Positions 4,690 to 63,476 of a stretch of DNA of 64,000 bases are shown here, in pieces; position 1 is the first letter of the stretch; each line of letters starts with the position of its first letter. Position numbers and translations under genes: made by a program. Source of the stretch: a virus (lineage: Duplodnaviria; Caudoviricetes); IMG/VR virus record IMGVR_UViG_3300021255_002891, positions 19,521 to 83,520 of that record; one strand, given 5' to 3'. The notes under the pieces were generated by a model that was not told where the DNA came from, did no database searches, and was given only the letters and a program-made list of their open reading frames with translations.

Positions 4690-5967
4690 TTAACTATTTG
4701 CCCAATTACTATTATCGTCTGGGTCTATACCTTGTCTTAAAAGATGCTTTTTAGTAACAATTTTATATTGTTTAGGGTCTAAATCATAATCAATCAAATC
4801 TACAATAAAATAATCCTTTTTAAATTGTCTTAACTCTTCTGGGTCATATCCCTCATAATCCCATCCGTTAACTATCTTATTGGTTGACTTATTTACTGCA
4901 AAATGAGAATAATTTTGATTATTCCTAAAACTTTCAGTCATAATTTTTCTAACTGCATTTTTTACTATTGCATGTAAATCAGACTCAGTAAGTCTAACTA
5001 ATTTTTTATTGTTTCTATTTACAGATTCACCGTATATATCATAATATTTTTGTCTATCTACATGGGTAATTGGATAATTTTCATTATCTCCATCTAACGG
5101 ATTAAAATTTTTATCATATTTTTTATTAGCAAGCTTTAGGAATACATTAGGATTAATAGGTATTGAATTACTTCCACTTCCTATATGGTCTGTGAGCCTA
5201 TCATTAATGGCAAACTTCTTAACTCCGTCAATTGTGCAACTAACCCATAGTATTCTTTCATACATTAGTTTTAAAACACTAAAGTTCAAGTTTTTAAGGT
5301 CTTGAATATATTTTTTGATTTCGTTTTCTTGTACACCAAGTTCTCTTAATGCCTTAACGCCATCTGGGTCACTCTTTGATACAAGACTAGCAACGGCATT
5401 TTTATTAAGCCCGCCATAAAGTTTACCATCTTTAACCATAAAATATGAAGTGTCATACTTGTCCGTTGTAGCACCATTTTGGTGGGTATATAATCTTCCC
5501 ATAGTATTATCAGTTGCGCCTACAGAAACATTTCCACTTCCAAAATTTTGTTTTTTGTCATATTTCTCATCACGAGTACCTAGTTCAGCTCCATAAGGTT
5601 TCAATAAATTGTTTACACTATCTTTGTATTTTCCATAAGCCTTTCCATAGTTGTCTTCGGTCTGCCAATGAAAAGTAATGACTGAACGCTTTATGATACC
5701 AACTGGTAACTTATTTTTCCTATCAGCACCACCTTGATGAAATTTTTTCAACACATCATAGCCTCTAGTACTCTTTCTTTGGTACTGTTCAATATCGTTA
5801 CCAAATTTATCAATATCAATGTTCTTTCCAGTCAAAGTTTTGCCTATATTTGCTGAACTTATGTAACACAAAGTTAAATAAGTGCCACCTTTTGCAGTAG
5901 ACAAAGCATCAATTATACTGTTAAAACTTACCCTTTGTCTTCTCTCTTTTCCACCTTCTCCTATCAT
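4690..5967 (-). CDS. hypothetical protein with an internal RLTESDLH motif
   Basis: 425-aa ORF containing KKLVRLTESDLHAIVKNAVRKIMTES. Confidence 0.8.
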   Translation of the reverse strand: MIGEGGKERRQRVSFNSIIDALSTAKGGTYLTLCYISSANIGKTLTGKNIDIDKFGNDIEQYQRKSTRGYDVLKKFHQGGADRKNKLPVGIIKRSVITFHWQTEDNYGKAYGKYKDSVNNLLKPYGAELGTRDEKYDKKQNFGSGNVSVGATDNTMGRLYTHQNGATTDKYDTSYFMVKDGKLYGGLNKNAVASLVSKSDPDGVKALRELGVQENEIKKYIQDLKNLNFSVLKLMYERILWVSCTIDGVKKFAINDRLTDHIGSGSNSIPINPNVFLKLANKKYDKNFNPLDGDNENYPITHVDRQKYYDIYGESVNRNNKKLVRLTESDLHAIVKNAVRKIMTESFRNNQNYSHFAVNKSTNKIVNGWDYEGYDPEELRQFKKDYFIVDLIDYDLDPKQYKIVTKKHLLRQGIDPDDNSNWANS

Positions 5968-5971
5968 AGTA

Positions 5972-6244
5972 TTAATAGTTTTTTAGCCAATAAGCATTCT
6001 GAAGATTTTCATCAAACTCATCGTTATTTGTACGATATAGTTCTGCTGCCGTTGTTGCGCTAGCTGAATCTATATTGTCTTGACTGTTGTACTCTTTGTC
6101 ACCGAACACACTGCTCACTTGAGTAATGTCATAGTAAGCACCGATGGCATAATGACCATTTGCACCGAAAACAACAGAGTCTTCATCCAAATGCATTGCC
6201 ATTGCATTCAATATATCACTGTCTTTATATGCTTTAGTATCCAT
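5972..6244 (-). CDS. hypothetical acidic protein
   Basis: 90-aa ORF tightly packed with its neighbours. Confidence 0.65.
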   Translation of the reverse strand: MDTKAYKDSDILNAMAMHLDEDSVVFGANGHYAIGAYYDITQVSSVFGDKEYNSQDNIDSASATTAAELYRTNNDEFDENLQNAYWLKNY

Positions 6245-6265
6245 AGTTTTTTTAGATTTATTTTT

Positions 6266-6625
6266 TTATGTACCTACTTTCCTAATTTTTCCGTCTCTAT
6301 TATAGTAGAATATTTCACCATTATCCAAAATGATATTAGGCCATCTTTTTGTATAGCCATTATAATTAGCTTGCATTGCCCTCACCCACATTCCACCATC
6401 TAAAACTTTTTTTTCTAATGGTGATAAACGGTCTTGGTTATCATATAGGTCTTGCATTTCTTTTTCAGAATAGATGTGCTTTTGTGGCTTTTTATCTACA
6501 AGTTCATTCGGCTTTTTACTTTTCTTGCCAAAAAGCCATCCTTCATTAGCCAATATTCTATGTACGGATTCCTTCACAATACTATGCAAATCACTTTCCG
6601 TAAGTCTTATAATCTTTTTTGACAT
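6266..6625 (-). CDS. hypothetical protein with an N-terminal RLTESDLH leader
   Basis: Begins MSKKIIRLTESDLHSIVKESVHRILANEG; TATTTATA lies upstream. Confidence 0.8.
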   Translation of the reverse strand: MSKKIIRLTESDLHSIVKESVHRILANEGWLFGKKSKKPNELVDKKPQKHIYSEKEMQDLYDNQDRLSPLEKKVLDGGMWVRAMQANYNGYTKRWPNIILDNGEIFYYNRDGKIRKVGT

Positions 6626-6662
6626 AATAAAAAAAGTAATTTATTATAAATATCTTTTAACA

Positions 6663-6694
6663 TTTGTTTTTCTCATTTTTTTAACATATCTTTG
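6663..6694 (+). promoter_or_regulatory. Bacteroidota sigma-A-type promoter (primase)
   Basis: TTTG (6663-6666), 20 nt, TATCTTTG (6687-6694); ATG follows 4 nt later. Confidence 0.75.
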
Positions 6695-6698
6695 CAAT

Positions 6699-7736
6699 AT
6701 GAAACAAGAACTTGAAAAGTTATACAACATATTAACAGTTTTCCTAGGAGAGGCAAAGAATGGGTTTGATGAAAACACCTACCAATACCAATTCCCTTGC
6801 CCTAAGTGCATTGATAGGGATGGTATTATGGAAGCTAGGAAATACAACCTAGAGGTCAACATTCAGAAGCAAGTCTTCCAATGTTGGAAATGCTCATCAA
6901 TGGAAGATGACATGAAAGGTTCTATCACGAAACTAATCAGAATGTACGGAAATGAAAAGCTTCTTTCAGAATACAAGGAAATCATACGTTCAATTAGGGA
7001 AAGCGAATTGTACAAGCTCCATTTCAGTGATAGTGACTTCAATATAGACACTTCCATAATAGAAAAGGAAGACTTGAAATTTCCACCAAGCTTCAAACTG
7101 TTCAAAAAAGACGGCAAAAACAACTATGGTGCATTGAAATACCTTCAAAACAGAGGAATCGATTGGAACATCATAGAACAATACAAAATAGGCTTTACCG
7201 AAAGGGAAGAAGATGATAAGATGAGAAAGTATTCATATAGGGTCATTATACCGTCATATAACGCCCTAGGAGAGCTTAATTATTGGGTGGGTAGGGATTA
7301 CCTACCTACGTCAGATAAATTCGCTCTGAGGACAAAATATGCGAATCCTCAAGTAAAGAAAACTGAAATCATATTCAATGAAGAGAAGATTAATTGGGAT
7401 GCCGACATCACATTGGTTGAAGGTGCTTTCGACCATATTGTAGTTCCAAATTCAATTGCGTTGTTGGGTAAGGCACTAGACAAGGATTATAAGTTATATT
7501 GGGAATTAATTACTAAAGCTAATGCAAACGTGAATATATTTTTAGATAATGATATTAAAGATAATGGAAAAGAAATATATGCATTATTAAATCATGGTAG
7601 ACTATATAATAAAATCAGATATATATATTCAGATTTAGGGAAAGACCCAAGTGAAATTTATCAAGAATATGGCTACAAGGGAATAATCAAATGCTTACGA
7701 AATGCTAAACAAATTGAAGAGGTTTATTTACAATAA
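6699..7736 (+). CDS. DNA primase (T4 gp61/DnaG-like)
   Basis: Zn finger CPKC...CWKC, YWVGR, TOPRIM LVEGAFD and FLDND. Start moved to MKQELEK downstream of the promoter. Confidence 0.88.
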   Translation: MKQELEKLYNILTVFLGEAKNGFDENTYQYQFPCPKCIDRDGIMEARKYNLEVNIQKQVFQCWKCSSMEDDMKGSITKLIRMYGNEKLLSEYKEIIRSIRESELYKLHFSDSDFNIDTSIIEKEDLKFPPSFKLFKKDGKNNYGALKYLQNRGIDWNIIEQYKIGFTEREEDDKMRKYSYRVIIPSYNALGELNYWVGRDYLPTSDKFALRTKYANPQVKKTEIIFNEEKINWDADITLVEGAFDHIVVPNSIALLGKALDKDYKLYWELITKANANVNIFLDNDIKDNGKEIYALLNHGRLYNKIRYIYSDLGKDPSEIYQEYGYKGIIKCLRNAKQIEEVYLQ

Positions 7737-7755
7737 CATACTAAAGGAGTATCCA

Positions 7756-8172
7756 TTAATTTGGATGCTCCTTTGTCAAGTATTCTCTAAAATTATTCAC
7801 TCTATGCTCAAACATTTCGTCTGTTATCATTATATCTTCTTTGCCTTCCATTTCAGCTTCTCTAAATAAGTTATCAATGTCTTCATCTGTGACAAATTTT
7901 CTATTTAACTTGTCACAAATCCTTAGCATACATATACCACCACCATAAGAGTATCTTCCCTCAAACCTTGTTATTGTTATGTCATCTTCTGATAATGGAT
8001 TTTCTTCATCTTGATAAAAACGTAAAACGCCAACAGCACTATCATATTCACTATCTTCAACCATAAATGAATATGCTGACTCTTTTACATCCTCCATGTT
8101 AATGACTTTAAATCCGTTTTCTCTAAGTTCCCTAATCTTTATTGGGATGTTTAAAACATATGTTACACTCAT
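7756..8172 (-). CDS. hypothetical protein
   Basis: 138-aa ORF with protein-like composition. Confidence 0.7.
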   Translation of the reverse strand: MSVTYVLNIPIKIRELRENGFKVINMEDVKESAYSFMVEDSEYDSAVGVLRFYQDEENPLSEDDITITRFEGRYSYGGGICMLRICDKLNRKFVTDEDIDNLFREAEMEGKEDIMITDEMFEHRVNNFREYLTKEHPN

Positions 8173-8305
8173 ATTTTGTTTCTTTTAAAAAAATTATTTT
8201 ATCTAGTAAAATGTTCTAATAACACTGACCTTTAAAATATAAAAATTATATTATAAAAACCAAGCATAAAACCATATTTTATTATAAACATACTTTAAAA
8301 ATAAA

Positions 8306-8333
8306 AAAATGCAGCCATTTCTGACTGCATTTT
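8306..8333 (-). terminator. intrinsic terminator
   Basis: Minus-strand RNA AUGCAGUC-AGAAAU-GGCUGCAU followed by a U-tract. Confidence 0.7.
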
Positions 8334-8359
8334 ATAAATTATTTGTGCCAACTGCGATG

Positions 8360-8740
8360 TTATTGCCTTAAATAATTTCCATATTTCTCACATTTCATTT
8401 TCAAATCCTCAAAATATTTCATTGCCTCTTCATTGGTACTGAATTTTGCATATACATTGCTATCTGCATTATTGCAGCATACATCAACCCTTGCCTTGTA
8501 ATATAATTTATAACCTATTGGAACAACATAGTCATCCTCCCAAAAATGACATAGATTTAAAAAGGCGTTTTTTACTGTCGTAAAACGGCACAAGCGACAA
8601 GGGTTCTCATTCTTATATAAGTTATGCCTAGCACGAAGTGGGATGAGTGGGATAAGTCCGAACAATTTCCAATAATAAAGTTTACCTTTTGGAACTGCCA
8701 ACTCAATTCCGCCAATTTCCTTCAATGGAGTAAACTTCAT
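8360..8740 (-). CDS. hypothetical protein (may extend to ATG 8825 via a frameshift)
   Basis: 126-aa ORF whose frame stays open upstream to 8797. Confidence 0.65.
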   Translation of the reverse strand: MKFTPLKEIGGIELAVPKGKLYYWKLFGLIPLIPLRARHNLYKNENPCRLCRFTTVKNAFLNLCHFWEDDYVVPIGYKLYYKARVDVCCNNADSNVYAKFSTNEEAMKYFEDLKMKCEKYGNYLRQ

Positions 8741-8904
8741 GTTCTTAACACTCTCATAAAATACTTTTCCCTCAACCTTAATTGGCTGATAAGTTTTTTA
8801 CGCTAATTGACTGATAATTTTTCATATTATTTTATTTTTTTATTAATGTATAAATGCACAAAAATAAGCTTTACTATTAACATTGGTCACCCATTTCATT
8901 TTAC

Positions 8905-9168
8905 TTATGCTCCTGGTGCAAATCTATAGTCATTGTCTTCATACCAATCACCTGGTCCAAGCTCATTAGACTGTGAAATATTATGACTACAAGAGTGCTC
9001 AGAGGTTTTATGCCCAAGTTCATCCATTGGAATTCCAAGTTCATCCATAAGTCCCTCAGTTGTTTTTCTTGCTGCGTTAGCAAGTGCTTCTACCATACAT
9101 TGAAAAACACAACATTTTTTGCTTGGTATAAAAGCATTTGTCAAACCAAATAATTTACCTGTAATCAT
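8905..9168 (-). CDS. hypothetical protein
   Basis: 87-aa ORF within the small-gene block. Confidence 0.55.
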   Translation of the reverse strand: MITGKLFGLTNAFIPSKKCCVFQCMVEALANAARKTTEGLMDELGIPMDELGHKTSEHSCSHNISQSNELGPGDWYEDNDYRFAPGA

Positions 9169-9197
9169 ATTTATCTATATTATGTTATTGCCTTTAT

Positions 9198-9812
9198 TTA
9201 TACTTCGTAGCCTTTTAATTTTAACATAAATTCTTCTACTGCTGTACTCAACTCATATATAGATAATGAATTGAATTTTTTGTGCGAGTCATAATCTTCA
9301 CTTAGCACAAAATAATGCCTATTTTTTATATCTAAAATTATATTGAACAATAAATCAATGTCTGTAACACTTTCCAAATTTAACGTGCAACCATTCGTTA
9401 ATATTAATTTATGACAATTCAATCTTGACCAAGTTAAGCTATTAGAGTGCTTTATTTGATGCGCATTTGCAATAAATTGCTTTGGCTTTTCGCCAAACCC
9501 AACTTTTTTAAATATTTCTTGTATATATTCTACCATTTCTTCTGCATATGTAGAAATCAAGTAATCTGCTTTCAAAGTTAATAATTTTTTATACTTTTCG
9601 GCATCTTCCTCATTGTTAAAAACGTCACAAACTCTGCAAAACGGCCTCGTTCTGTCAGCACACTCAATATCGCACTTTGTAAATGAATTGAGACTTGACT
9701 GTCTTACTGTAACGTTTTCATACTCATCAACTAACACTTTTGGCTTGCGATAAACATCCATAGAAAGATGAACATACCACACTTTTTCATACTTTTCATT
9801 AAAACGTACCAT
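9198..9812 (-). CDS. hypothetical protein
   Basis: 204-aa ORF with an A-rich leader. Confidence 0.75.
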   Translation of the reverse strand: MVRFNEKYEKVWYVHLSMDVYRKPKVLVDEYENVTVRQSSLNSFTKCDIECADRTRPFCRVCDVFNNEEDAEKYKKLLTLKADYLISTYAEEMVEYIQEIFKKVGFGEKPKQFIANAHQIKHSNSLTWSRLNCHKLILTNGCTLNLESVTDIDLLFNIILDIKNRHYFVLSEDYDSHKKFNSLSIYELSTAVEEFMLKLKGYEV

Positions 9813-9845
9813 AATTTTTATATTTATAATTAAATTTTTTATCTA

Positions 9846-10055
9846 TTAGGAAGTTAGCGTTTCATCAAACTTATATTCGATGATAAGCTTTAACATCTTA
9901 CTATTCTCTGTCTTCATTTCAATTAGGCCATCACAAGCGAATGGATGCTTAATATTATCGGTGAAATACAGAGAAATTCCCTTATTATAAACATCCTCAA
10001 CTTCTCTCTCAATTACTGCACTTTTAATCTGATTGTAAAACTTACTTGTTGCCAT
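9846..10055 (-). pseudogene. short or truncated PD-(D/E)xK nuclease-like ORF
   Basis: 69 aa with EREVE...ACDGLI...LIIEYK; TAA TAG stops follow 7 codons after the ExK motif. Confidence 0.45.
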
Positions 10056-10081
10056 ATATTTTCTTTGTTTATTTTACGTTG

Positions 10082-10112
10082 CAAATATACGACAAAAAAA
10101 TGGATTGACAAA
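10082..10112 (-). promoter_or_regulatory. Bacteroidota sigma-A-type promoter
   Basis: TTTG (10109-10112), 19 nt, TATATTTG (10082-10089). Confidence 0.75.
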
Positions 10113-10128
10113 ATTAACCAATCCATTT
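10094..10128 (-). terminator. intrinsic terminator overlapping the promoter
   Basis: RNA UGGAUUGG-loop-UCAAUCCA followed by U7. Confidence 0.7.
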
Positions 10129-10203
10129 CTATTAAATACTTAACATATTTTAATAAAAAGTTAAAGCAACTATATAGGATTTGACCCCAAATAGTTTACA
10201 TTG

Positions 10204-10326
10204 TTATAATATAAATTCAAAAAATGGTATTCCATCTTTCCCAATAAGCCAAACAACCTTAGTATATGGTACATCTTTTTCAACCGATGACCATGTTAAA
10301 CCCATATCTCTATATACGCTTTCCAT
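10204..10326 (-). CDS. small hypothetical protein (40 aa)
   Basis: Translated by hand: MESVYRDMGLTWSSVEKDVPYTKVVWLIGKDGIPFFEFIL; starts 5 nt after the endolysin stop. Confidence 0.45.
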   Translation of the reverse strand: MESVYRDMGLTWSSVEKDVPYTKVVWLIGKDGIPFFEFIL

Positions 10327-10331
10327 AATTA

Positions 10332-10979
10332 TTATTTTTTCAAAGAGTTAAGATAATCTAGAATTCCTTCAATATGAGTCCTAACTGTAGCATGTACACC
10401 TATAGTTGAAGTTAAATACTCCAAGTCATCCTTGTTGTCATAGAAGAAATTCTCAGTCAATACTGCTGGACACTTTGATTTCTTGATGATATAGAAATCA
10501 GCTTCCTTATCCCTATCACCGTCAGTCCAATCAGTTCTTATTTTCCTACCTTCAAAGTTCTTTTCAGCCCTTTTGTAAAGATACTCAGCAAGTGTATCTG
10601 ACTTAGTTTTACCTCTTGTTGTATAAGCTTCCCATCCTTTTGCATTCATCCAGTCATTTCCAAGACCAACTGCATTAGAATGAATTGACACCAATATTAC
10701 ATTACTAGCCCCATACTTATTGCATAATGTATTGACCCTTCTAACTCTTTCAGAAAGCGAAATATCTGTGTCTTCAGGAACCAACAACCTTGCATCATAA
10801 CCATAGGCTTTCAATTCTTCAACAACATCGTCTGCTATGACTCTGTTGTATTTCCACTCACGGAATCTTCCCTTATTGGTAAACTCTGCATCAATTTTCA
10901 TGTCACTCTCTAATAAAGGACTGAATTTTCCGTTCTGCTCTGTATTAGAGCCATGTCCATTGTCAATTAGTATAATCAT
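10332..10979 (-). CDS. N-acetylmuramoyl-L-alanine amidase (Amidase_3), probable endolysin
   Basis: ILIDNGHG, E (REWKYN), SIHSNA, GWEAY and PAVLTENFF zinc-amidase motifs. Start set at MIILID. Confidence 0.9.
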   Translation of the reverse strand: MIILIDNGHGSNTEQNGKFSPLLESDMKIDAEFTNKGRFREWKYNRVIADDVVEELKAYGYDARLLVPEDTDISLSERVRRVNTLCNKYGASNVILVSIHSNAVGLGNDWMNAKGWEAYTTRGKTKSDTLAEYLYKRAEKNFEGRKIRTDWTDGDRDKEADFYIIKKSKCPAVLTENFFYDNKDDLEYLTSTIGVHATVRTHIEGILDYLNSLKK

Positions 10980-11008
10980 AATTTTTTTATATTTTATTAT
11001 TATAAATA

Positions 11009-11040
11009 TTTGCATTTTAACATTATTTTACATATCTTTG
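11009..11040 (+). promoter_or_regulatory. Bacteroidota sigma-A-type promoter
   Basis: TTTG (11009-11012), 20 nt, TATCTTTG (11033-11040). Confidence 0.75.
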
Positions 11041-11055
11041 CAGAAAGTTTAAAAT

Positions 11056-11874
11056 ATGATAAAATGCGTAATACATTGCAGCGATATTCACATAAGGAAC
11101 TTCCAAAGACTTTCAGAATACGCTGAACAGCTTACAAAATTTGTGGAAAAGTGTAATGAAATTGCACAAAACTATGAAAGGGAAGAAATAAGAATTGTGG
11201 TTGCTGGAGACTTGGTACATCAGAAAAACAATATTTCAAACGAACTAATGACTTTCAGCAGTTTCTTTCTAAGACAATTAGAAGAAATAGCCGATGTAAT
11301 AGTTATAGCTGGAAATCACGACCTTTTAGTAAACAACACCTCAAGAACCGACACATTGACGGCATTGTTTGACACTGCTAACTTTACAAACTGTAAGTTC
11401 TTTGACGGAATGCTTAACTATGAAAGCGGAATTATAGAGGACGAAAACATCACATGGGTACTATACTCAATATACAACGGATATAAAGCTCCTGACATCA
11501 GTGAAATCAACAGAGAAGGTAAAACGGTTATAGGGCTGTATCATGGAATGGTTGACGGTGCTAGTCTTAACAACGGAAGCGTTGTGGACAACGGAGTTGA
11601 AGGGTCTTTGTTTGAAGGGTGCGATTTTGTTATGGCTGGTGACATTCATAAACGACAAGTCCTCAAAAGAGGTGATTGTGAAATAGTATATCCAGGTTCT
11701 CTTATCCAACAGACATTCGGTGAAACGGTATCACAACATGGTTTTGTTGTTTGGGACATGGAAAATCTAACATATGAATTCGTTGATTTGGAAACGGATT
11801 ATGGATTATATGACATTGAAATTGAATCTATAGATGATATAGACGAAGACAAAGAAAAACTGATTAACTTTTAA
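11056..11874 (+). CDS. SbcD/Mre11/gp47-like metallophosphoesterase nuclease
   Basis: SDIH, AGDLVH, GNHD, YHG, GDIHK and YPGSLIQQ motifs. Confidence 0.88.
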   Translation: MIKCVIHCSDIHIRNFQRLSEYAEQLTKFVEKCNEIAQNYEREEIRIVVAGDLVHQKNNISNELMTFSSFFLRQLEEIADVIVIAGNHDLLVNNTSRTDTLTALFDTANFTNCKFFDGMLNYESGIIEDENITWVLYSIYNGYKAPDISEINREGKTVIGLYHGMVDGASLNNGSVVDNGVEGSLFEGCDFVMAGDIHKRQVLKRGDCEIVYPGSLIQQTFGETVSQHGFVVWDMENLTYEFVDLETDYGLYDIEIESIDDIDEDKEKLINF

Positions 11875-11876
11875 GG

Positions 11877-12461
11877 TTAATCAGTTTTTATTATTTCTAT
11901 AGTTCCGTTTGAATTATGCTTTAATGCAATTGTTAATTTGTTTTTTGATTTTTCTTGAGTAATAATAATCAAAAATTTAAATTCAAAACCACTTTCTTCT
12001 TCAGAAACTATATTGAGCTTAGTTTTAGTATATGATACATTCAAATTATAAGGCTTTCCGTCATATTCAACACTCCAAGGATGATTTTTTCCATTGACTT
12101 TTGACACTACATTAATTTTTATTGTTTCTGATTCTGTTGTAACTTTTCCTAGTTTAAATGTATACACCTTTTCTTTAATAGCTTCTTGATTAGGAAGTAT
12201 TTTTATTAAAATGGAATCTTTTTTACTATTTTTTAAAGTCACTAATGCTTCATTTTTAAAAGTTTCAAGATTATTAATTTTAATTGTTAATCTATTCCTA
12301 TAGTCAGTATAATATGAAACCCCCCCACCATTAGCAAACGAAACAGACCATGATAAAAACATATCACCATCAAAAGATTCAACGTTCAATATATATTCAT
12401 CATCAAATGATTGGTTTAAATCTAAAATATATTCTTTTATTGCATTATTAACTTTAATCAT
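11877..12461 (-). CDS. hypothetical protein (last gene of the structural block)
   Basis: Beta-rich ORF; ATG at 12461 preferred over the TTG at 12485. Confidence 0.7.
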   Translation of the reverse strand: MIKVNNAIKEYILDLNQSFDDEYILNVESFDGDMFLSWSVSFANGGGVSYYTDYRNRLTIKINNLETFKNEALVTLKNSKKDSILIKILPNQEAIKEKVYTFKLGKVTTESETIKINVVSKVNGKNHPWSVEYDGKPYNLNVSYTKTKLNIVSEEESGFEFKFLIIITQEKSKNKLTIALKHNSNGTIEIIKTD

Positions 12462-12472
12462 ATAACTAAATG

Positions 12473-52572: not shown

Positions 52573-52633
52573 AGTATAGTTATTTATACTATAAATATTA
52601 TCACCATTCTTATTTTTATACTTGATATAATAC

Positions 52634-52664: not shown

Positions 52665-52738
52665 AATTTGCAGCCACTTCTGCCGCAATTAATTCTTTCT
52701 TTAATCTTTTAAAGTTCAAAAGAAATTAATCTAAGGTT

Positions 52739-53120: not shown

Positions 53121-53121
53121 T

Positions 53122-53646: not shown

Positions 53647-53663
53647 ATCTGTATATTTTTTTG

Positions 53664-53695
53664 CAAATATATATAAAATTAATGAGATACACAAC
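53664..53695 (-). promoter_or_regulatory. Bacteroidota sigma-A-type promoter (one mismatch at -33)
   Basis: GTTG, 20 nt, TATATTTG (53664-53671). Confidence 0.6.
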
Positions 53696-55111: not shown

Positions 55112-56111
55112 TATATCCGCATTTTATAATAGCCAATGCTATGGCTTTAGCTAAATTGCAAGGAACTGCATTTCCAATCTGTACCAATTGGTCTTTTTTT
55201 GACCCGCAAAATATAAAATCGTCTGGAAAACTTTGCAACCTTGCCATTTCTCTTGGAGTTATCACCCTAGGCAATTTTGGGTGTATATTAACTGCTCCAT
55301 GATTTTCTTTTATCGTGCAACTAGGTTCATCCCAAGGACTTTTCCTCCACGATTCTGGATATTTTTCATACAACGATTTACCTTCTTCAACAGCTAAAAG
55401 TCTTTCTTTCATTTCATCACTATGTTTAGTAAACACGTGATTGAATTCTTTGTTTTCTTCCAACTCCATTAAATCGCCTATTGCTTGCCCAACTGTAACA
55501 TAATGCTCTTTATCCGTTAATGGTTCTGGAAATTCTATTTCCTTTCCAACCCTATTGCCAATCAAAATCCATCTTTGCCTAGTTTGAGGCGTTAAATAAT
55601 CAGCAGCATTTAAAACTTTCCATTTAACGCAATATCCTATATTCTCCAAATCTTCGCAAACTTGCTTGACAATATCACCATTTAGCATTGAAACCATACC
55701 TGGAACATTTTCCATTGTAATCCACTTCGGTTTCAGTTTAGAAATAATTTCAACGGCTTCCTTGTATAATATATTTCTTGGGTCATCAATCATTCTTCTA
55801 CCAGCCATTGAAAAGCCTTGACAAGGAGGCGATGCATGGAGTATATCAAGTTCGTTTCCATTTAATTTGTTTTTAACAACTTCGTACAGCCTTTCTTTTG
55901 TTTCATCAAGAGTTATGTCTCCATTGATAACCTCACAATCAATATTTCTACTATGTGTATCGCAAGCAGATTTAAAAAAGTCAACTGCTGCTATTGGTTT
56001 TAAATTGGCCATTTCATAACCTTTTGATACACCACCAGCTCCACAAAATAAATCTACGAAAGTAATTTCCGTTTTTTTAGGCGATTCCCAAATATCCTTT
56101 ATATTAATCAT
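55080..56111 (-). CDS. dcm: DNA (cytosine-5) methyltransferase
   Basis: DLFCGAGG, SPPCQGFS, ENV, QTRQR, HP...R.ITPRE.ARLQSFPD, QIGNAVP. Start set at MINIKD. Confidence 0.95.
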   Translation of the reverse strand: MINIKDIWESPKKTEITFVDLFCGAGGVSKGYEMANLKPIAAVDFFKSACDTHSRNIDCEVINGDITLDETKERLYEVVKNKLNGNELDILHASPPCQGFSMAGRRMIDDPRNILYKEAVEIISKLKPKWITMENVPGMVSMLNGDIVKQVCEDLENIGYCVKWKVLNAADYLTPQTRQRWILIGNRVGKEIEFPEPLTDKEHYVTVGQAIGDLMELEENKEFNHVFTKHSDEMKERLLAVEEGKSLYEKYPESWRKSPWDEPSCTIKENHGAVNIHPKLPRVITPREMARLQSFPDDFIFCGSKKDQLVQIGNAVPCNLAKAIALAIIKCGYNGQREIIKLC

Positions 56112-56126
56112 ATCTAAAACTTTTTG

Positions 56127-56158
56127 CAAATATATAAAAATTTTTTTAAAAAAACAAA
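56127..56158 (-). promoter_or_regulatory. Bacteroidota sigma-A-type promoter
   Basis: TTTG (56155-56158), 20 nt, TATATTTG (56127-56134). Confidence 0.75.
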
Positions 56159-56188
56159 AAAAAATGAGAGATTTTTTATCTCTCATTT
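56156..56188 (-). terminator. intrinsic terminator abutting the promoter
   Basis: AAATGAGAGAT-ttttt-ATCTCTCATTT with an A/T tract. Confidence 0.75.
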
Positions 56189-56193
56189 CTTAT

Positions 56194-57003
56194 TTATCCC
56201 CAAGTATCTACCATTGCATCAGCAATTCCTTGGAACGTCTTAGACCTTAATCTTCGTCTAGCCTCATCATAATATTTCTTCTTAGCCAATTTTCCTTCCT
56301 TTGTGGATATATCTATATTATTGTCTACAACCCATTGGCTTGTCTCATCTGCCGCTTGCTGCAATGCCTTATACATCCATTCAGAATACTTATACTTGCC
56401 GCCTTTAAGATTAATATCTAACCCACTAGGTTCTGTTTTAACTTGAGGTGCTAATGGAGGCAGATTCTTAAGCCATAAACAAGTAAGCTTCTTTGCCATA
56501 TCGCCAAATTGCCAAGGTTGTATCATTTGGTCTGGCTTTCTCCATCTTGTGCTCATCACACCAACTGGATTCTCTATCGCAACCTTATCAACATCAGCAT
56601 TAGCAACTTTCATAAAGAATGCTGCACCATCTTCAAGGTTCTTCATCCTTTCAGCATTTATCGACCCATCCTTATTATATAACCATCTAGCCCCTGACAC
56701 AGCAAGATATGTGCAAGGTGGATGGGCAATCAATAAATTCCACTTGTCAACCTTTACTTTCTTTCCTCCTTGTGTAACTCCACCACGATTATTAATTATA
56801 TCAAATATATCAGCCTTGAAATGCCATTCTGGATGTCCACCACTACAGTCTTGCAAGTCACAACTATAAGCATTATGACCTTTTTTCCTAAATGCAAGAC
56901 AAACCGCTTGACTTTCTTCACACCCTATAAGCACATTCATTGGCTTAAATTCAGACTCTAGAATAATGTTATACTTTTCTTCTGTAATGTGTATCTTTTT
57001 CAT
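56194..57003 (-). CDS. phage-type C5 cytosine methyltransferase-like protein with an N-terminal leader
   Basis: VLIGCEESQ, AYSCD, IAHPPCTYL (catalytic PC), IENP, QPWQFG, RSKTF.GIA.AM. Start set at MKKIHIT. Confidence 0.75.
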   Translation of the reverse strand: MKKIHITEEKYNIILESEFKPMNVLIGCEESQAVCLAFRKKGHNAYSCDLQDCSGGHPEWHFKADIFDIINNRGGVTQGGKKVKVDKWNLLIAHPPCTYLAVSGARWLYNKDGSINAERMKNLEDGAAFFMKVANADVDKVAIENPVGVMSTRWRKPDQMIQPWQFGDMAKKLTCLWLKNLPPLAPQVKTEPSGLDINLKGGKYKYSEWMYKALQQAADETSQWVVDNNIDISTKEGKLAKKKYYDEARRRLRSKTFQGIADAMVDTWG

Positions 57004-57047
57004 AACGGAAAAACAAAATCTTATTATATATAAATATTTTAACATTG

Positions 57048-57078
57048 CAAATATACGAAAAAAAAATGGATTGGCAAA
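57048..57078 (-). promoter_or_regulatory. Bacteroidota sigma-A-type promoter
   Basis: TTTG (57075-57078), 19 nt, TATATTTG (57048-57055). Confidence 0.75.
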
Positions 57079-57097
57079 AATCCAACCCAATTTTTTT
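57058..57097 (-). terminator. intrinsic terminator overlapping the promoter
   Basis: RNA UGGGUUGG-AUUUUUG-CCAAUCCA followed by U9. Confidence 0.7.
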
Positions 57098-57683
57098 AGC
57101 ATTTATTAATACTTTTTTCTTTTCTCAACTCATTTATTGGCCTCAACAAGTCTTGAAACCCATCTATCTTGTCTCCGATATATTCTTTGCAATAGGAAAC
57201 TCTTGTAAGTCTATTTCTATATCTTTGGTTGTCAGCAGATTTCTTGTCTCTGCCTTTTCCGTCAAACACAGTACCTCTAACGTTTGGATTCCTTGAAAGT
57301 GCCTCTCCAAACTTTCTATGTGCTGTCTTTATATACAACTTATAATCATGTTCCTCGTCCGACAGTGACTTAACTATGCCACCAACGAAATTGAATATAA
57401 TTGTGCTAAGTCCTAGTCCTTGATAGTCTGGCAGTATTACAATTCTACTTATTGAACACCCATAAGGAATGCCCTTTCTAGGTGTGTTAAGAATTCCAAC
57501 AAAACCTACTGGAACACCATCCCATTCAAACAATAAACACTTGCAAGACTTATTCAATTCTGCCGTCAAATAATGGCATTTTGAAAATCCTAAGCTTTTC
57601 CACACACTAGGTTCACAACGTCTCACTGTCAGTTGTATGTACGGCCTTTCTCCTTTTTTATGATTAATTTGAATTGTTTTCAC
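57096..57683 (-). CDS. GNAT-family acetyltransferase
   Basis: CHYL, F.W.G.PVGF, and the acetyl-CoA motif SRIVILPDYQGLGL. Confidence 0.8.
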   Translation of the reverse strand: MKTIQINHKKGERPYIQLTVRRCEPSVWKSLGFSKCHYLTAELNKSCKCLLFEWDGVPVGFVGILNTPRKGIPYGCSISRIVILPDYQGLGLSTIIFNFVGGIVKSLSDEEHDYKLYIKTAHRKFGEALSRNPNVRGTVFDGKGRDKKSADNQRYRNRLTRVSYCKEYIGDKIDGFQDLLRPINELRKEKSINKC

Positions 57684-58164
57684 TATCTTTTGTCTTTTCC
57701 TTCAACTTATTTTCATAAGCCTCCATAGCTTTCTGTCTGTTTTCCTTCCACTTGTTGTGACAATCCTCACATTCAGCATAAATCCAATAATTTTCATTTA
57801 TTGGCTTGACAATGTGTTTTCCGCACACTTCACAAGTGTGATATGATTTCTCTTCGGCATCCCTAATCATCTGCCTAAGTTCATCATTATACTTGTTAAC
57901 GTAGAAACACAAAAAACCAAATTTTTCTTTTATTTGGTGTATTTCGAACTTATCATCATGCTCTTCGTTATACTTGTTAATGTAGTCTATGATTGGCTGA
58001 TACAACTCTTTCCATCCTTCACCGCACTCTATGCCAAATAGCTCATAAGGCCATTGTGGAGTGAATCTCTCAGGATGTTCTTTTTTTTCAAGTTCCTTTT
58101 CCTTTCTGTACTTCTCAATTATTTTTTGCAATTCTTGCAATCTTTCTTTTTTAGTCTGTTCCAT
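57664..58164 (-). CDS. phage hypothetical protein with a Zn-ribbon
   Basis: ECGEGW...QIKEKFG..FY...CEVCG...CEDC. Confidence 0.75.
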   Translation of the reverse strand: MEQTKKERLQELQKIIEKYRKEKELEKKEHPERFTPQWPYELFGIECGEGWKELYQPIIDYINKYNEEHDDKFEIHQIKEKFGFLCFYVNKYNDELRQMIRDAEEKSYHTCEVCGKHIVKPINENYWIYAECEDCHNKWKENRQKAMEAYENKLKEKTKDSENNSN

Positions 58165-58291
58165 TTTTGTATGTATTAACTATCAAATCTATTGCCTCAC
58201 CTAGATACTTAGGGTCTACCATAGGAATGTCAGCACCCCTTCTCCATTTATTGTGATGCTCCAATAGCATAAGTGCCTCTTGTACTTCCAT
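58151..58291 (-). CDS. small phage protein (46 aa)
   Basis: Translated by hand: MEVQEALMLLEHHNKWRRGADIPMVDPKYLGEAIDLIVNTYKNGTD; overlaps both neighbours. Confidence 0.65.
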   Translation of the reverse strand: MEVQEALMLLEHHNKWRRGADIPMVDPKYLGEAIDLIVNTYKNGTD

Positions 58292-59204
58292 ATTTAATAA
58301 AATTAACTAAGTCATTAGCATTATTGAAAAAACGGTTATCAAATTCATAATATTTATTAAATTTTTCTTTAAAATAGTAAACTAATATTAAACCATTTTC
58401 ATTGCAAATTTTATTTTTATTCTTATCCCTATTCTTGATTGTTTCTATCCCACCCATAAACTTCTCATCAATAAAATGCTGTCCACCTTGGCATTCTATA
58501 CCAATATTATAATTTTTGATATAAAAATCTAATGTTTGTTTTCCTAACCAACTAAAATGTTTCCATTGTTCATATTCAATACCGCTATCACATAAAGCAA
58601 GCCTAACTTCATTCTCCAAATGGCTTTCGTTACAAATTGGGCATCCTTTACCGTTTAAATGATTATTTGGCGTTTGCCAAAATTTACCATGTTCTGGACA
58701 TATTATACAGACATTTTTTTGAGATTTATCATATTTCACTTCTGAATAATCGTATTTGTCTCCGTGAATTTTCCTTGCCTTATCAATAAACTCTTCATTT
58801 GTTATACTTTTATTTGCGCACTTAGGACAACCAACGCCTCTATACAATGCTAATGCATATTGTTCGAATTCACCATGCTTCGAGCATATTACTTTGACTT
58901 TATTTTTCATTTTTGAATATTTAGTCAAAGAGAAATCATATTTATCGCCAAATTTATCTTTGCACCTTTTTAAAAATTCAATTTCATTAAGTGCTCTATT
59001 TTCACTTCTTTTTACAATTCCACATTTTCTACATCCATATTTATAATGATTAGTTGGTAATTGTGAAAATTCTCCATGAACTGGGCATATTATACAAACT
59101 TTAGTCGAACTGTCTATATAATTAACTTTAGAATAATCATATTTATCACCATGAATTTGTTTGGCTTTTTTAATAAATTCATCACTTGTTAATCTTTTAT
59201 TCAT
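58248..59204 (-). mobile_element. free-standing putative homing endonuclease (repeated Zn modules plus Vsr/PD-(D/E)xK-like C-terminal domain)
   Basis: Three repeats of F..KA..IHG.KYDYS.V.Y....V.IIC..HG.F.Q....H..G.GC..C, then LDFYI...IGIECQGGQHF; markedly AT-rich. Confidence 0.75.
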
Positions 59205-59915
59205 TTAATTAATTGGTTTAGCATCACTTAATATTTGCTCATCTTTTATATACTGTGAAGCCTTATATTCTGCATCATCAGTATAAACTATTTTTTCTAA
59301 CTCAACATTACCATTTTCGTCTTTATGATTCAAATTAAATATGTAATTTGGATTTAGCCATTCAATAATGTCAAAATGACACGATGCAATTATTATCTTC
59401 AAATTGTTCTGTCTTATATATCTCTGCAATGCATAACTCATTGACTTTGCAACGTCTCTGTTCACAACCGATGTAAACTCATCCACATAGATTATTTGCC
59501 CCTTTCCAGCCTCGTAGATGGCTTTGCATAGGTCTAGCCTTGCTCTTTCACCATTTGATAATTCTTGAGGCTTACGAAGCCATGTAGGAACTGATGCAAG
59601 GCCAACTCCACATAGAAGGTCGCACGCTTCTTCCTCTGTCAAATTGGGGAATTGGCTTATGACAGCCTTTTGATAATCATACTCTATAGGTTTAATATCA
59701 CCTATTTCCCTTAAAATAGTGGATTTTCCGCTTCCACTCTTTCCACATATCAGCATTATATTCCATTCGCTAGCATTCATTGCATCCATATCTTCCTTTG
59801 ATGGAATGGGAACTTCTGTCATCGTAAGTTCCTTATTCTGAATGTCATAGTTATCATATAGATACTGTGTGTAGTTATCATTTACGATTTTAGACTCTAA
59901 TAGTATTTTTCCCAT
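59205..59915 (-). CDS. soluble ABC-type ATPase
   Basis: Walker A GKSGSGKST, signature LSNGE, Walker B/D-loop VDEFTSVV, H-loop SCH; no transmembrane segment. Confidence 0.85.
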   Translation of the reverse strand: MGKILLESKIVNDNYTQYLYDNYDIQNKELTMTEVPIPSKEDMDAMNASEWNIMLICGKSGSGKSTILREIGDIKPIEYDYQKAVISQFPNLTEEEACDLLCGVGLASVPTWLRKPQELSNGERARLDLCKAIYEAGKGQIIYVDEFTSVVNRDVAKSMSYALQRYIRQNNLKIIIASCHFDIIEWLNPNYIFNLNHKDENGNVELEKIVYTDDAEYKASQYIKDEQILSDAKPIN

Positions 59916-59935
59916 GTTAGAATTGTTATTTTTTG

Positions 59936-59967
59936 CAAATATATAAAAAATATGTTAAAATCCCAAA
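59936..59967 (-). promoter_or_regulatory. Bacteroidota sigma-A-type promoter
   Basis: TTTG (59964-59967), 20 nt, TATATTTG (59936-59943). Confidence 0.75.
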
Positions 59968-60000
59968 AAAAATGAGGAAATATTTCTATTTCCTCACTTT
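59965..60000 (-). terminator. intrinsic terminator after recA, abutting the promoter
   Basis: TGAGGAAAT-atttct-ATTTCCTCA with an A/T tract. Confidence 0.75.
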
Positions 60001-60003
60001 TTT

Positions 60004-61185
60004 TTAATCATCACTATCTTCTTCACTAAATTCAATGTCAGATTCGTTAATATTTGTTCCTCCATCGTCCAATTTTGCCAATATATCCTTAATATATGTC
60101 TTTTTATATTCCTCTAGTTTACTAGGACTTACTAGGCCGTTATGTACACATGACATTTCACCTTCATATGTTATATTCCAAGGTGTTGGCAGTTGATTCT
60201 TAGTTGTCCTAATTTTTGTCGTAATACCATAGACATACTTAGAACCCTTTGCAGTTGCATCAAGTTTCTTTGTTGATGCCTTACCTATACCTCCAAGGTG
60301 AATAATCAGCCTAGCACCATAGAAGAACGTCTTACCGCCCTTTAATTCTATTGAAGGTACACCACCCATAGAATTCATTGAATCGTTCCATATTTTATTC
60401 ACACAGAAGAATGTGTTTGTATATGGTTCACTTATCTTCTTTGAAGACGGAATTCTGTTGTTTATAATGTTACTGAAAGCTTGTGAAATAGCTCCTGCAT
60501 CAAACATGTTATTTCCAGTCTTACTTTCAAGAGACTTAAACGACTGTATTGAGCCTATTGAATCCCAAATGAAACACATTGGATAAGGCATTTCTCCACT
60601 TTCTTGTTTGTCAAGGAATTCATTTATAGAATAAGCAATGTCCTCAAGAACTGCTTGCTTACGCTTTACTTTGGACTCTTTGCCAGTGTTATAATCACGA
60701 TTACCATATCTATCTGCAAGCATCTTAGTGTCGAAATAGAAGAAATCACCTGTATAGTTGATGATTCTCTTTTCAGTGTGTGTTGTTATTTCGCCAGTTT
60801 CTTCATCAACATCCTCAACTTCAATATCACCGTATACTGGGGTTGCTTTTACTCCGCAATCAATTGCATACTTGAAATCAAAGTTATTTTCCGTTTCATA
60901 TATGATTGGAATGATACCATTGTTGATGCAAGACGCTATAAGACAGTTCTTAATGGTTGATTTACCTGTGTTAGACCATCCTGTTACAATGGTGAGATAA
61001 CCCTTTGGTATTCCTGGCAATTTGACCGCATCAGAAAACGCTTGTGGCAGTGGTATGAAATCCATTTCCTTGTCGGCAACAGACTTGTCAAAGTCTGTGC
61101 TGTCTTTCATTGTAAGCTGAAATTTCTCTTTCAACTCACTAATGCTAGGTTTTTTAAATTCCTTTTTCTTGATTGGTTGTTTCAT
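60004..61185 (-). CDS. recA: RecA/UvsX-like recombinase
   Basis: G.PKG....GWSNTGKST, FIWDSIGS, VNKIW, GG....Y. Start set at MKQPIKK. Confidence 0.85.
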   Translation of the reverse strand: MKQPIKKKEFKKPSISELKEKFQLTMKDSTDFDKSVADKEMDFIPLPQAFSDAVKLPGIPKGYLTIVTGWSNTGKSTIKNCLIASCINNGIIPIIYETENNFDFKYAIDCGVKATPVYGDIEVEDVDEETGEITTHTEKRIINYTGDFFYFDTKMLADRYGNRDYNTGKESKVKRKQAVLEDIAYSINEFLDKQESGEMPYPMCFIWDSIGSIQSFKSLESKTGNNMFDAGAISQAFSNIINNRIPSSKKISEPYTNTFFCVNKIWNDSMNSMGGVPSIELKGGKTFFYGARLIIHLGGIGKASTKKLDATAKGSKYVYGITTKIRTTKNQLPTPWNITYEGEMSCVHNGLVSPSKLEEYKKTYIKDILAKLDDGGTNINESDIEFSEEDSDD

Positions 61186-61187
61186 AA

Positions 61188-61808
61188 CTATTCTGTTTTT
61201 TCTTTGTTTATTTTCTCTCTGATTTTCTCTTTCCAACACTTTCTACAAATGGCTCTGTACTTGTCGTTTCCACCTATCATTACTTGTGCACCTTCTGTAA
61301 TTATATTGCCGTCCTCATCAAACCTTGCGTTTATTGACGTTTTCCTATCACCGCACTCACAAGTTGACTTTATTTCTTCGATGTCATCTGCAAGTTCAAA
61401 AAGACGTTTGGAACTTGGAAATAACTTTGATTGGAAATCGGTTCTCAACCCAAAACACATCACATTGACACCCAAAAAGTCAACCACATCAGATAACTGG
61501 TCTACTTGGTCTTCCGTTAAGAATTGACACTCATCTATTATAACCCATTTAAGTGTTTCAAACTGTAACGCTAGGACATTTCTGTATGCTTTAACTGCTT
61601 TATATAAATTAACGTCTTGGTCAACCATTATGCATTTGCGCTCAAGTCCTGCTCTAGAACGAATGATACCTTCCCCATCCCTTGTATCCAATGATGGTTT
61701 GAAAACCATTATTTGTACACCCTTTTCCTCAAAGTTATAAGCTGTGCTCAATAGCCTCAGTGTTTTGGCCGAAGCCATTGAGCCGTAATAGTAGAACAAT
61801 TTACTCAT
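61188..61808 (-). CDS. tdk: thymidine kinase
   Basis: GSMASAKT, FKPSLDTR, IDECQF, FGLRTDF, C.CG, IGGNDKYRAICRKC. Confidence 0.95.
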   Translation of the reverse strand: MSKLFYYYGSMASAKTLRLLSTAYNFEEKGVQIMVFKPSLDTRDGEGIIRSRAGLERKCIMVDQDVNLYKAVKAYRNVLALQFETLKWVIIDECQFLTEDQVDQLSDVVDFLGVNVMCFGLRTDFQSKLFPSSKRLFELADDIEEIKSTCECGDRKTSINARFDEDGNIITEGAQVMIGGNDKYRAICRKCWKEKIREKINKEKTE

Positions 61809-61822
61809 ATTAAATTATTTAA

Positions 61823-62824
61823 TTAGAATGGCAAATCGTCATCTGCCTCATTTGCAGCCTCTTCCGCATCATTGACGATTATCGTGTCTGAATTTGCAAT
61901 CTTTGAAAAATCAGTAGTTTCTTCCTTCAATTCCTCTTCAACTCTTGCTTGTTCAGCCTCTTCCTTAATCTTATTCATTTCGTCCTTATCAACATATTTG
62001 TTAAGCTCCTTGTTGAAAATTGGAACTCCACCCATAGCGATAATTGTCATGTAATCATAAGACTTAACGGTGTACACGTCATACCACTTCTTCTCATCCT
62101 CAATCCATTTCATGCCAAGGTCATAGTCTTCCGTAAGTGGTGATGGTGAACCTGCGTCAAGAACTTGAATCGTTGTCTTGCCATCAGTTGTCTTTGTTAA
62201 CGTAATGTCAAGGTCAAGACCATTATTAAGGTCGAAAATACTATAAACATTGCCTTTCTTGGCTGCACTAGCCGCACGTCTGTTTGCAAGGTTCATAATC
62301 TTGTCATACACACCATCCTTCTTTTTTGATGAATTGAAGAGCCAAAATTTAACACCGTCTTCCTCATGGTCACGTTCAATACAGCGCACAATCCACATTT
62401 CCTTAACCTTGTTAAGGAATTCAATATCACCGTACTTCTTCTTTGTTGGCTCATCCAAAGACTTTGACTTCAATTCCCTAGCCTTTGCAGATGTCTCACA
62501 AAATGGGCATTTATCTCCCATTGAAGAGCCATTTTTCATGTTGTGAGTAGGGCACACGAAAGTCTTCCATCCACTAGATGAAACCTCCTTATTAACCTTT
62601 ACGGTATGCATAAAAACTTTCTTGAAAGGGCTACCACCTTCTGGGGAGAATGGTAACAGTCTGATTGTTAATGTTTTAGTAGTTTCATTATCACCAAGTC
62701 TTGCTTGTAGATAATTTTTTTCATTAAATTGTGTTTTCTTAGGGGTAAATGTCTTTTGTTCTTCTTCGTACTGGTTTTTTACCTCTTCTGCGTCAATGTT
62801 GACACTAAAATTTTTGTTGTTCAT
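61823..62824 (-). CDS. single-stranded DNA-binding protein (T4 gp32-like)
   Basis: TIRLLPF, FMH, CP...CPFC Zn site, GLDLDITL and acidic tail DDDLPF. Confidence 0.85.
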   Translation of the reverse strand: MNNKNFSVNIDAEEVKNQYEEEQKTFTPKKTQFNEKNYLQARLGDNETTKTLTIRLLPFSPEGGSPFKKVFMHTVKVNKEVSSSGWKTFVCPTHNMKNGSSMGDKCPFCETSAKARELKSKSLDEPTKKKYGDIEFLNKVKEMWIVRCIERDHEEDGVKFWLFNSSKKKDGVYDKIMNLANRRAASAAKKGNVYSIFDLNNGLDLDITLTKTTDGKTTIQVLDAGSPSPLTEDYDLGMKWIEDEKKWYDVYTVKSYDYMTIIAMGGVPIFNKELNKYVDKDEMNKIKEEAEQARVEEELKEETTDFSKIANSDTIIVNDAEEAANEADDDLPF

Positions 62825-62886
62825 AAGTTAAATTGTTTAAACAAATTATTTTAAATGTACGCCAAAACGTACTTAAATTGTTATTG

Positions 62887-62918
62887 CAAAGATATATAAA
62901 AAAAGTTAAAAAAGCAAA
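62887..62918 (-). promoter_or_regulatory. Bacteroidota sigma-A-type promoter (SSB operon)
   Basis: TTTG (62915-62918), 20 nt, TATCTTTG (62887-62894). Confidence 0.75.
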
Positions 62919-62952
62919 AAATTCCTAGTTATTTTTTATTCATAACTAGGAA
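62916..62952 (-). terminator. intrinsic terminator abutting the promoter
   Basis: TTCCTAGTTAT-loop-ATAACTAGGAA with an A/T tract. Confidence 0.75.
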
Positions 62953-62963
62953 AATATAAATCA

Positions 62964-63476
62964 TTAGCGTTCATCAGATTCCCAATCTGGTTCGTAATCA
63001 TTATCATAAAGTTCAAAATCCTCTTCAGTCAAGCCATTAAGTATTTCTTTTAATGTTTGTGTTGCTAACTGTGCAACTTTTTGGTTTGGATATTGTGCTA
63101 CATATTGTAATGCTTCTTTATCACCGATTGTGCTTTCAAGTGAAGTAACTGGTGAATAAGCACTTCCATAGCCAGTTGACTCATCATATACAGAACTAAT
63201 CACTCCCTCTATAACAAATACATTTGGATTTTGTTCACAATAATTCTTAAACTCCTCCCATTCCTCGTCTGTTATATCAGGAATATTCTCAAGTAAATCG
63301 TTCATAACGTCTTTTTCTCCGCTTAACTCATTACGTCCATAATATCCACCAACCATAGGGTTTCCGTCACTTGGAACATAACCACGTCTAGTCCAACCTT
63401 CTTTAAGAATCCTATTCACTGACTCTTTCACAATTCTGTGAAGGTCTGATTCTGTTAATCTTATAATCTTTTTCAT
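62964..63476 (-). CDS. hypothetical acidic protein with an N-terminal RLTESDLH leader
   Basis: Begins MKKIIRLTESDLHRIVKESVNRILKEG. Confidence 0.8.
   Translation of the reverse strand: MKKIIRLTESDLHRIVKESVNRILKEGWTRRGYVPSDGNPMVGGYYGRNELSGEKDVMNDLLENIPDITDEEWEEFKNYCEQNPNVFVIEGVISSVYDESTGYGSAYSPVTSLESTIGDKEALQYVAQYPNQKVAQLATQTLKEILNGLTEEDFELYDNDYEPDWESDER

Follow-up and report, generated by a model that had tools for sequence, protein, structure and literature searches.

A 26-residue peptide shared by unrelated phage proteins: a candidate tag for head loading and prohead-protease processing

The motif and the genes that carry it

The stretch of DNA analysed here (the window) is 64,000 nucleotides (nt) long and corresponds to bases 19521-83520 of an 83.5-kb viral contig, IMG/VR record IMGVR_UViG_3300021255_002891, at about 32% G+C and with a completeness of 38% (CheckV). 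A first-pass annotation of the window had pointed out that three otherwise unlike proteins carry nearly the same short peptide, and had proposed that this peptide is a modular address tag which loads diverse effectors into the phage head and is processed there by the prohead protease. That peptide, called the motif below, was followed through the contig, its relatives and large sequence collections. It can be read directly in the translations of the three open reading frames (ORFs) for which it had been quoted, at 6266-6625, 62964-63476 and 4690-5967, all on the minus strand. These genes and the features that go with them are listed here by window position.

4690..5967, minus strand: B_425, 425 amino acids (aa), in which an N-domain (residues 10-290) is followed by a disordered linker, the motif helix and an 80-aa C-domain
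4933..5007, minus strand: internal motif of B_425, KKLVRLTESDLHAIVKNAVRKIMTE, residues 321-345
5972..6244, minus strand: orf90, a 90-aa acidic ORF without the motif, between C_119 and B_425
6266..6625, minus strand: C_119, a 119-aa basic protein with the motif at residues 1-28 (6542-6625), ending ILANE before a G
6644..6653, minus strand: candidate late promoter, a ATATTTATA box 27 nt upstream of the C_119 start codon
62964..63476, minus strand: D_170, a 170-aa acidic protein with the motif at residues 1-26 (63399-63476), followed by a well-folded alpha/beta domain

A fourth copy, again N-terminal, belongs to A_249 (L001:14012-14761:-), on the same contig upstream of the window. A hidden Markov model (HMM) of the motif, run against all six frames of the 83.5-kb contig, found just these four copies at E-values of about 1e-20, and the next best match had an E-value of 1.6. 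Outside the motif the four proteins are unrelated to one another, as had been claimed for the first three (best BLASTP E-value 0.09), and none of the four has a match in Pfam, PHROGs or NCBIfam. D_170 has orthologues that align over its full length at 63-88% identity.

The constraint was said to lie on the protein, and the codons bear this out: between copies, 6-15 identical residues are encoded by different codons (15/22 for the pair A_249 and D_170). Because identical residues use different codons, what is conserved is the peptide and not a DNA repeat, and an origin as a DNA repeat or a miniature inverted-repeat transposable element is ruled out on the same ground. The annotation had also seen weaker versions of the leader on a methyltransferase, an ART-like ORF and a GP88-like ORF. 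These score at most 1.6 bits against the motif HMM and are not the motif. An [LI]-x-E-[SGA] sequence occurs within the first 40 residues of 16/68 ORFs of the contig, so the endings of these supposed leaders are at the level of chance.

Sequence, structure and spread of the motif

The motif is a short strand followed by an amphipathic helix. Its consensus, taken from 350 copies, is 26 residues long: M-(N)-K-K-[LI]-I-R-L-T-E-S-D-L-H-R-I-V-K-E-S-V-N-R-I-L-K-E, or KKIIRLTESDLHxIVKESVxRILKE. The polar residues R6, T8, E9, S10, D11 and H13 are very highly conserved. In the same copies position 24 is L or I in 93% and position 26 is E in 93-98%, and the conservation is gone at position 27, where G and S are most frequent.

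AlphaFold2 (AF2) models were used to see how the motif sits in two of the proteins. In D_170 the motif helix covers residues 9-26 at a predicted local distance difference test score (pLDDT) of 56-62, and blocks from residue 51 to 150 reach 84-96. In B_425 the helix covers residues 328-345 at pLDDT 57-78, with disordered linkers on either side, and is flanked by a confident 280-aa N-domain and an 80-aa C-domain. In both models the motif helix scores below the folded domains that adjoin it. As modelled, the motif would be a loose, exposed helix on flexible linkers, not packed on its cargo, and this fits an address or docking element. Neither model has a Foldseek match in the PDB at E <= 0.001. 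A complex prediction with two copies of the first 40 residues (88-row alignment) scored 0.05 and carries no weight either way.

A profile search of 1.84 billion cluster representatives returned 4,969 matches at E <= 1e-3, of which 808 were at E <= 1e-10. The ESM Atlas gave unnamed viral clusters only (score 0.76), and the profile had only chance-level matches among PDB sequences. In 50,697 deposited phage genomes, tblastn found no copy of the motif at E <= 0.01, and megablast of window positions 60000-64000 found no match either. A full-text literature search for 'RLTESDL' returned no paper.

Most copies stand at the start of their protein, with the initiator methionine opening the motif in 81% of 204 copies from fetched loci. 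What follows is highly varied. The part outside the motif sorts the 195 motif ORFs of these loci into 123 clusters; the cargo after the motif has a median length of 99 aa, and among the examples read it is often low in complexity. Pfam recognised only a few zinc ribbons in 150 motif proteins, so the description of the cargo as diverse effectors finds no support there. Two other kinds of leader were considered and set aside: a leader of a ribosomally synthesised and post-translationally modified peptide, since the bodies are proteins of 60-400 aa (no specific test was made), and a signal peptide, since the motif is highly charged.

Some proteins and loci hold several copies. At L119:908-4084 (genome G004) three motif genes follow one another, with products of 281, 667 and 99 aa, and the second of these proteins has the motif near both ends, at residues 1-26 and 641-664. 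A 607-aa protein of G005 and a 649-aa protein of G001 each have two diverged internal copies, of the form x-V/L-T/S-E-x-E-L-K-x-V/I-V/I-K-E-A-A.

Carrier phages and their head genes

The IMG/VR matches trace back to a limited number of metagenome sample series, which we take from their IDs to be rumen samples, and many of them lie on contigs of 280-412 kb. Matches in genome collections come almost all from rumen Prevotella or Prevotellaceae. The near-complete phage genomes have 8-17 copies of the motif each, dispersed and with some tandem arrays. Within 10 kb of motif genes there are genes for a T4-type portal (266 bits), a T4-type terminase and a Peptidase_S77 of the gp21 family (S77 below; 83 bits), and the capsid protein of the clade is homologous to T4 gp23 (104 bits). 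S77 is present in 8/9 motif-bearing genomes that are at least 90% complete. On our reading the carriers form a clade of rumen Prevotella phages that have T4-type heads and huge genomes (about 280-412 kb).

The contig itself is tied to this clade by the gene directly downstream of D_170, at 61823-62824 on the minus strand of the window. Its 333-aa product has a CPFCETS zinc-finger-like stretch and an acidic DDDLPF tail and, judged by these features, looks like a gp32-type single-strand DNA-binding protein (SSB-like), with no match in Pfam, PHROGs or NCBIfam. The SSB-like protein is 75-82% identical across many rumen viral contigs. Four complete genomes of 409-412 kb, which carry S77, have genes 75-78% identical to the SSB-like gene, and the contig is therefore a fragment of a phage of that clade.

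Scaffold-like proteins from three relatives have a conserved [IL]-L-x-E near the N-terminus (ALLGE / ALLSE / DLLKE; KLLSE / SILNE / KILTE). The gp23-like capsid proteins of the same three have LIYE or LLKE, followed by A, at the expected end of the delta piece; the placement of that cut relative to T4 is assumed. The [LI]-x-E sites of the scaffold-like and capsid proteins lie at corresponding N-terminal positions in the three relatives and, on our reading, resemble the ILKE end of the motif. The scaffold-like protein was also considered as a carrier of a diverged motif, and it was absent from the sub-threshold HMM matches.

The protease genes have features of their own. In some relatives the S77 gene codes for 600-odd aa (L115:3810-5633, G004), and in G003, G043 and G054 the S77 match is split. 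The insertion of about 380 aa in that protease begins with Cys and ends HWTKN, followed by C, and from its sequence it looks like an intein with a homing endonuclease. A ClpP-type protease gene (PF00574, 202 bits) lies at L001:5201-5881, on the same contig as the window and upstream of it. PHROGs labels it 'head maturation protease', but its neighbours belong to nucleotide metabolism (nucleoside 2-deoxyribosyltransferase-like, Mom-like) and not to a head module.

Linkage to the protease gene and a candidate late-promoter box

In 8/9 genomes S77 has a motif gene at a distance of between 5 nt and 1.4 kb. It lies downstream of S77 by 5 nt in G001, 32 nt in G004 and about 95 nt in G013, and at a distance of 0.6-1.4 kb in G003, G010, G020, G026 and G028; the remaining genome, G002, has no motif gene near S77. 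The chance of so close a copy was estimated at about 7% per genome, taking one motif gene per 35-40 kb, and because the genomes are related the linkage was counted as five of about six lineages. The motif genes that adjoin S77 are not orthologous to one another. Like the ip genes of T-even phages, they have the look of variable insertions into a hyperplastic zone.

Motif genes also share an upstream signal. The octamer ATATTTAT, often extended to GATATTTAT, stands 25-30 nt 5' of the start codon in 73/138 motif ORFs, a 24-fold enrichment over background, and often has a terminator-like hairpin in front of it. In the relatives the same box is found at 16/20 portal genes, 15/17 S77 protease genes and 16/16 scaffold-like genes. 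It is found at 228/992 other ORFs (23%) and at 0/12 sigma-factor-like genes. The window has a further late box before a baseplate gene. The counts in the relatives bear out the reading of TATTTATA as a putative promoter of virion genes, and from this upstream signal the motif genes appear to be expressed late, together with the head genes.

In 17/138 viral motif ORFs the stretch from the late box to the start codon contains a second conserved box, AATACGTAT, which is 53-fold enriched. The two boxes together make a stereotyped leader of about 45 nt, GATATTTATTATTAAAATAACGAATTAATACGTATTATAAT-ATG, as at L087:4950-4994.

Pairing with an IS1595 transposase

In 23 loci the motif gene lies tail to tail with an IS1595 transposase gene, with gaps of -90 to 379 bp (20/23 below 100 bp). 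At bacterial and some phage loci the gene beside the motif gene matches DDE_Tnp_IS1595 at 158 bits and a zinc ribbon at 36 bits; in the window no such transposase lies beside a motif gene. Between elements that have transposases 92% identical, the motif-coding stretch (about 90 nt) is the only other part conserved as DNA, and the body of the ORF is swapped. At L098 there is a convincing 26-nt inverted repeat between the start of the motif ORF and the far end of the element. At the other paired loci a look for clean terminal inverted repeats gave only weak AT-rich matches. The huge phages have one IS1595 transposase gene or none, and that of G001 is not paired with a motif gene.

In Prevotella chromosomes the pair forms a two-gene mobile unit with a transposase of about 328 aa (L081:4392-6520, L098:4560-6540, L087:4995-5400 and about 20 other loci), and Segatella bryantii DSM 11371 has just a 56-aa remnant of the transposase. 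Genes adjoining the motif gene in bacterial loci end, or begin, with a second amphipathic helix, roughly I-N-x-I-I-x-E-V-L-N-Q-Y-L-R-x-N-L-I-L-N (L084:4062-4739, L087:4317-4694, L103:4180-4638, L105:138-581, L090:116-940). To judge by its sequence, this helix may be either a partner of the motif or a relative that has diverged from it.

The phage late box is retained by 26/40 motif genes at loci from bacterial assemblies, so their expression would be tied to phage infection. On our reading the transposon serves to carry late cargo cassettes. A more specific version of this idea is that IS1595 shuttles the cassettes among huge phages and Prevotella, that the chromosomal copies are switched on only upon phage infection, and that their products are then loaded into the heads of the infecting phage as hitch-hikers or as a 'Trojan horse' on the side of the host or the transposon. 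We hold this version as speculative and rather doubtful.

Interpretation as a possible head-loading and processing tag

These observations lead us to propose that the motif is a tag for head loading and prohead-protease processing which works like the capsid-targeting sequence (CTS) of T4, and we regard the chances of this as about evenly balanced. Late in infection the tag would bring unrelated small accessory proteins into the core of the assembling prohead. The gp21-type (S77) prohead protease would then cut after the final Glu at [L/I]-x-E, releasing the cargo within the head, from where it might be ejected along with the DNA. The motif genes would be self-contained late cassettes, often with a terminator and made of late box, tag and variable body. 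Such cassettes would travel among phage genomes on an IS1595-family transposon and would reach host chromosomes as spill-over. In this scheme the binding of the prohead core, the cleavage, the packaging and the ejection are all inferred. The address tag that had been proposed for the window thus stands in part: the S77 protease and T4-type head of the clade, the L/I-x-E end, the late box, the protease linkage and the free helix speak for it indirectly, the weaker leaders fall away, and the diverse effectors find no support.

The T4 system is the closest parallel. T4 gp21 cuts after L/I-x-E, and the internal proteins of T4 are diverse and have only a cleavable capsid-targeting sequence in common (PMC9026906, PMC3012670). 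Like the CTS of IPI, IPII, IPIII and Alt, which gp21 removes, the motif is a short N-terminal peptide and the sole element common to unrelated, fast-changing small proteins. It also ends in L/I-x-E, occurs in a clade with a gp21-family protease and a T4-type portal, terminase and capsid, and appears to be expressed late. Several features are new relative to the T4 system. Motif copies may also be internal, terminal or doubled, and some are borne by IS1595. Motif genes are scattered at 8-17 per genome, whereas those of T4 are gathered in the ip locus.

Other known systems resemble it less closely. The protease gp21 has diverged homologues in phiKZ (gp175) and SPN3US (gp245), and head and ejection proteins of phiKZ-like giant phages are cut after S/A/G-x-E (PMC9026906). 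The propeptides of phiKZ-like phages are thus a parallel in that they too belong to giant phages with many packaged proteins cut after Glu. These propeptides are not known to have a conserved sequence in common, whereas here one near-identical module recurs across proteins. Encapsulin cargo-loading peptides are likewise short and conserved and bring diverse cargo into an HK97-fold shell, but they are C-terminal, uncleaved and non-viral and have no sequence likeness to the motif, so that this is an analogy only. IS1595 elements with passenger genes likewise have a DDE_Tnp_IS1595 transposase with a zinc ribbon beside one extra gene. Here, by contrast, that gene has a conserved 26-codon head and a phage late box with a swapped body, an arrangement of which no description was found.

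Several observations count against the proposed tag. The motif is 26 residues long where the T4 CTS has about 10, it is far more conserved, and by eye it has no sequence likeness to the CTS; for that last reason it would be an analogue and not a homologue. No S77 gene was found on the 83.5-kb contig, where the sole protease is of the ClpP type. C_119 ends its motif with A-N-E and B_425 with M-T-E, neither of which is strictly L/I-x-E. Among the 204 copies 6% are clearly internal and a further 13% ambiguous, and some are C-terminal or doubled. In 110/120 listed homologues of B_425 the motif has stayed between two domains; the identity of the N-domain falls to 24% among homologues that keep the motif in this position, and the linker after the motif varies from 0 to about 230 aa, with some members stopping right after the motif. 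In five Prevotella genomes (three of them isolates) 7/7 motif genes are paired with 7/7 IS1595 transposases, a non-virion setting in which the motif could serve the transposon or a general partner. The internal, C-terminal and doubled copies and the strict IS1595 pairing do not fit a simple N-terminal leader. T4 Alt is processed at both ends (PMC3012670, PMC9026906). By analogy, this softens the objection from internal copies and does not remove it. Finally, the genomes behind the promoter and linkage counts are related, and the counts are not independent.

If the tag works as suggested here, it defines the packaged or ejected repertoire of abundant, uncultured huge rumen phages, and thousands of orphan proteins can be listed with a 26-residue profile. 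It would extend the capsid-targeting principle of T4 to a much longer and stricter tag, give a handle for loading foreign proteins into the heads of Prevotella phages, and point to a transposon that trades cargo cassettes between phages and hosts. Even with no role in the head, the motif deserves a family entry as a so far uncatalogued mini-domain that is very common and has a clear genomic signature.

Alternative explanations

The late box and the linkage to morphogenesis genes would fit any virion-associated role, and the motif may be an uncleaved helix that docks accessory proteins onto some late structure or hub other than the prohead interior, such as the capsid exterior, the neck, the tail or a common partner from phage or host. 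The [L/I]-x-E would then be the end of a helix capped by Gly, and a Gly after a helix is indeed a common C-cap. Docking would account more easily than a cleaved leader for the internal, C-terminal and doubled copies, and the very high conservation of the polar residues suggests a specific interface. However, the precise L/I-x-E end and the sharp stop in conservation match the cutting rule of the clade's protease family, and the cargoes are mostly small and, in the examples read, often of low complexity, unlike known decoration or fibre proteins. We consider docking of this kind unlikely, though it deserves to be weighed. The motif might instead be a generic element for self-association or nucleic-acid binding with no link to packaging, either a coiled coil or a strand and helix like those of ribbon-helix-helix (RHH) proteins. 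Its K-K-I-I-R-L, T-E-S-D, amphipathic helix and Gly have a presumed likeness to strand and helix A of Arc/CopG; the RHH fold of Arc/MetJ/CopG likewise has a basic strand, an S/T-x-x-D/E N-cap, an amphipathic helix and a Gly. Tandem copies within one protein also suit self-association, as does the similar helix (II-x-E-V-L-N-Q-Y-L-R-x-N-L-I) on neighbouring bacterial genes, with which helix-helix pairing is possible. Yet no conserved second helix follows the motif, and searches of Pfam, NCBIfam and the PDB, RHH families included, gave no match. A generic helix would also leave the late box, the protease linkage and the restriction to one phage clade unexplained, and we find it quite improbable.

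The pairing with IS1595 suggests a further reading, in which the motif protein is an accessory factor of the element, a cofactor or regulator of transposition whose N-terminus binds the transposase or the element ends, and the phage copies are relics of insertion. The one-to-one pairing in the five Prevotella genomes, the tail-to-tail arrangement at 23 loci, the conservation between elements of only the motif stretch and the transposase, and the inverted repeat at the start of the motif ORF in one locus all agree with this. It is hard to square with 8-17 motif genes against one transposase or none per huge phage, the one in G001 being unpaired, and with the purifying selection on the peptide in phage copies that have no transposase. 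A body that is swapped between elements whose transposases are 92% identical would be odd for a cofactor, and the cassettes retain the phage late-promoter box. We think such an accessory factor very improbable. The probability that is left after these alternatives and the head-loading tag goes to explanations not listed here.

Neighbouring features in the window

C_119, orf90 and B_425 appear to form one transcription unit, read in that order with C_119 first. The C-domain of B_425 (residues 345-425) recurs as a mobile module: proteins of 236-737 aa end with it at 63-85% identity, and their N-terminal parts, where an alignment with B_425 is possible at all, reach only 24-36% identity.

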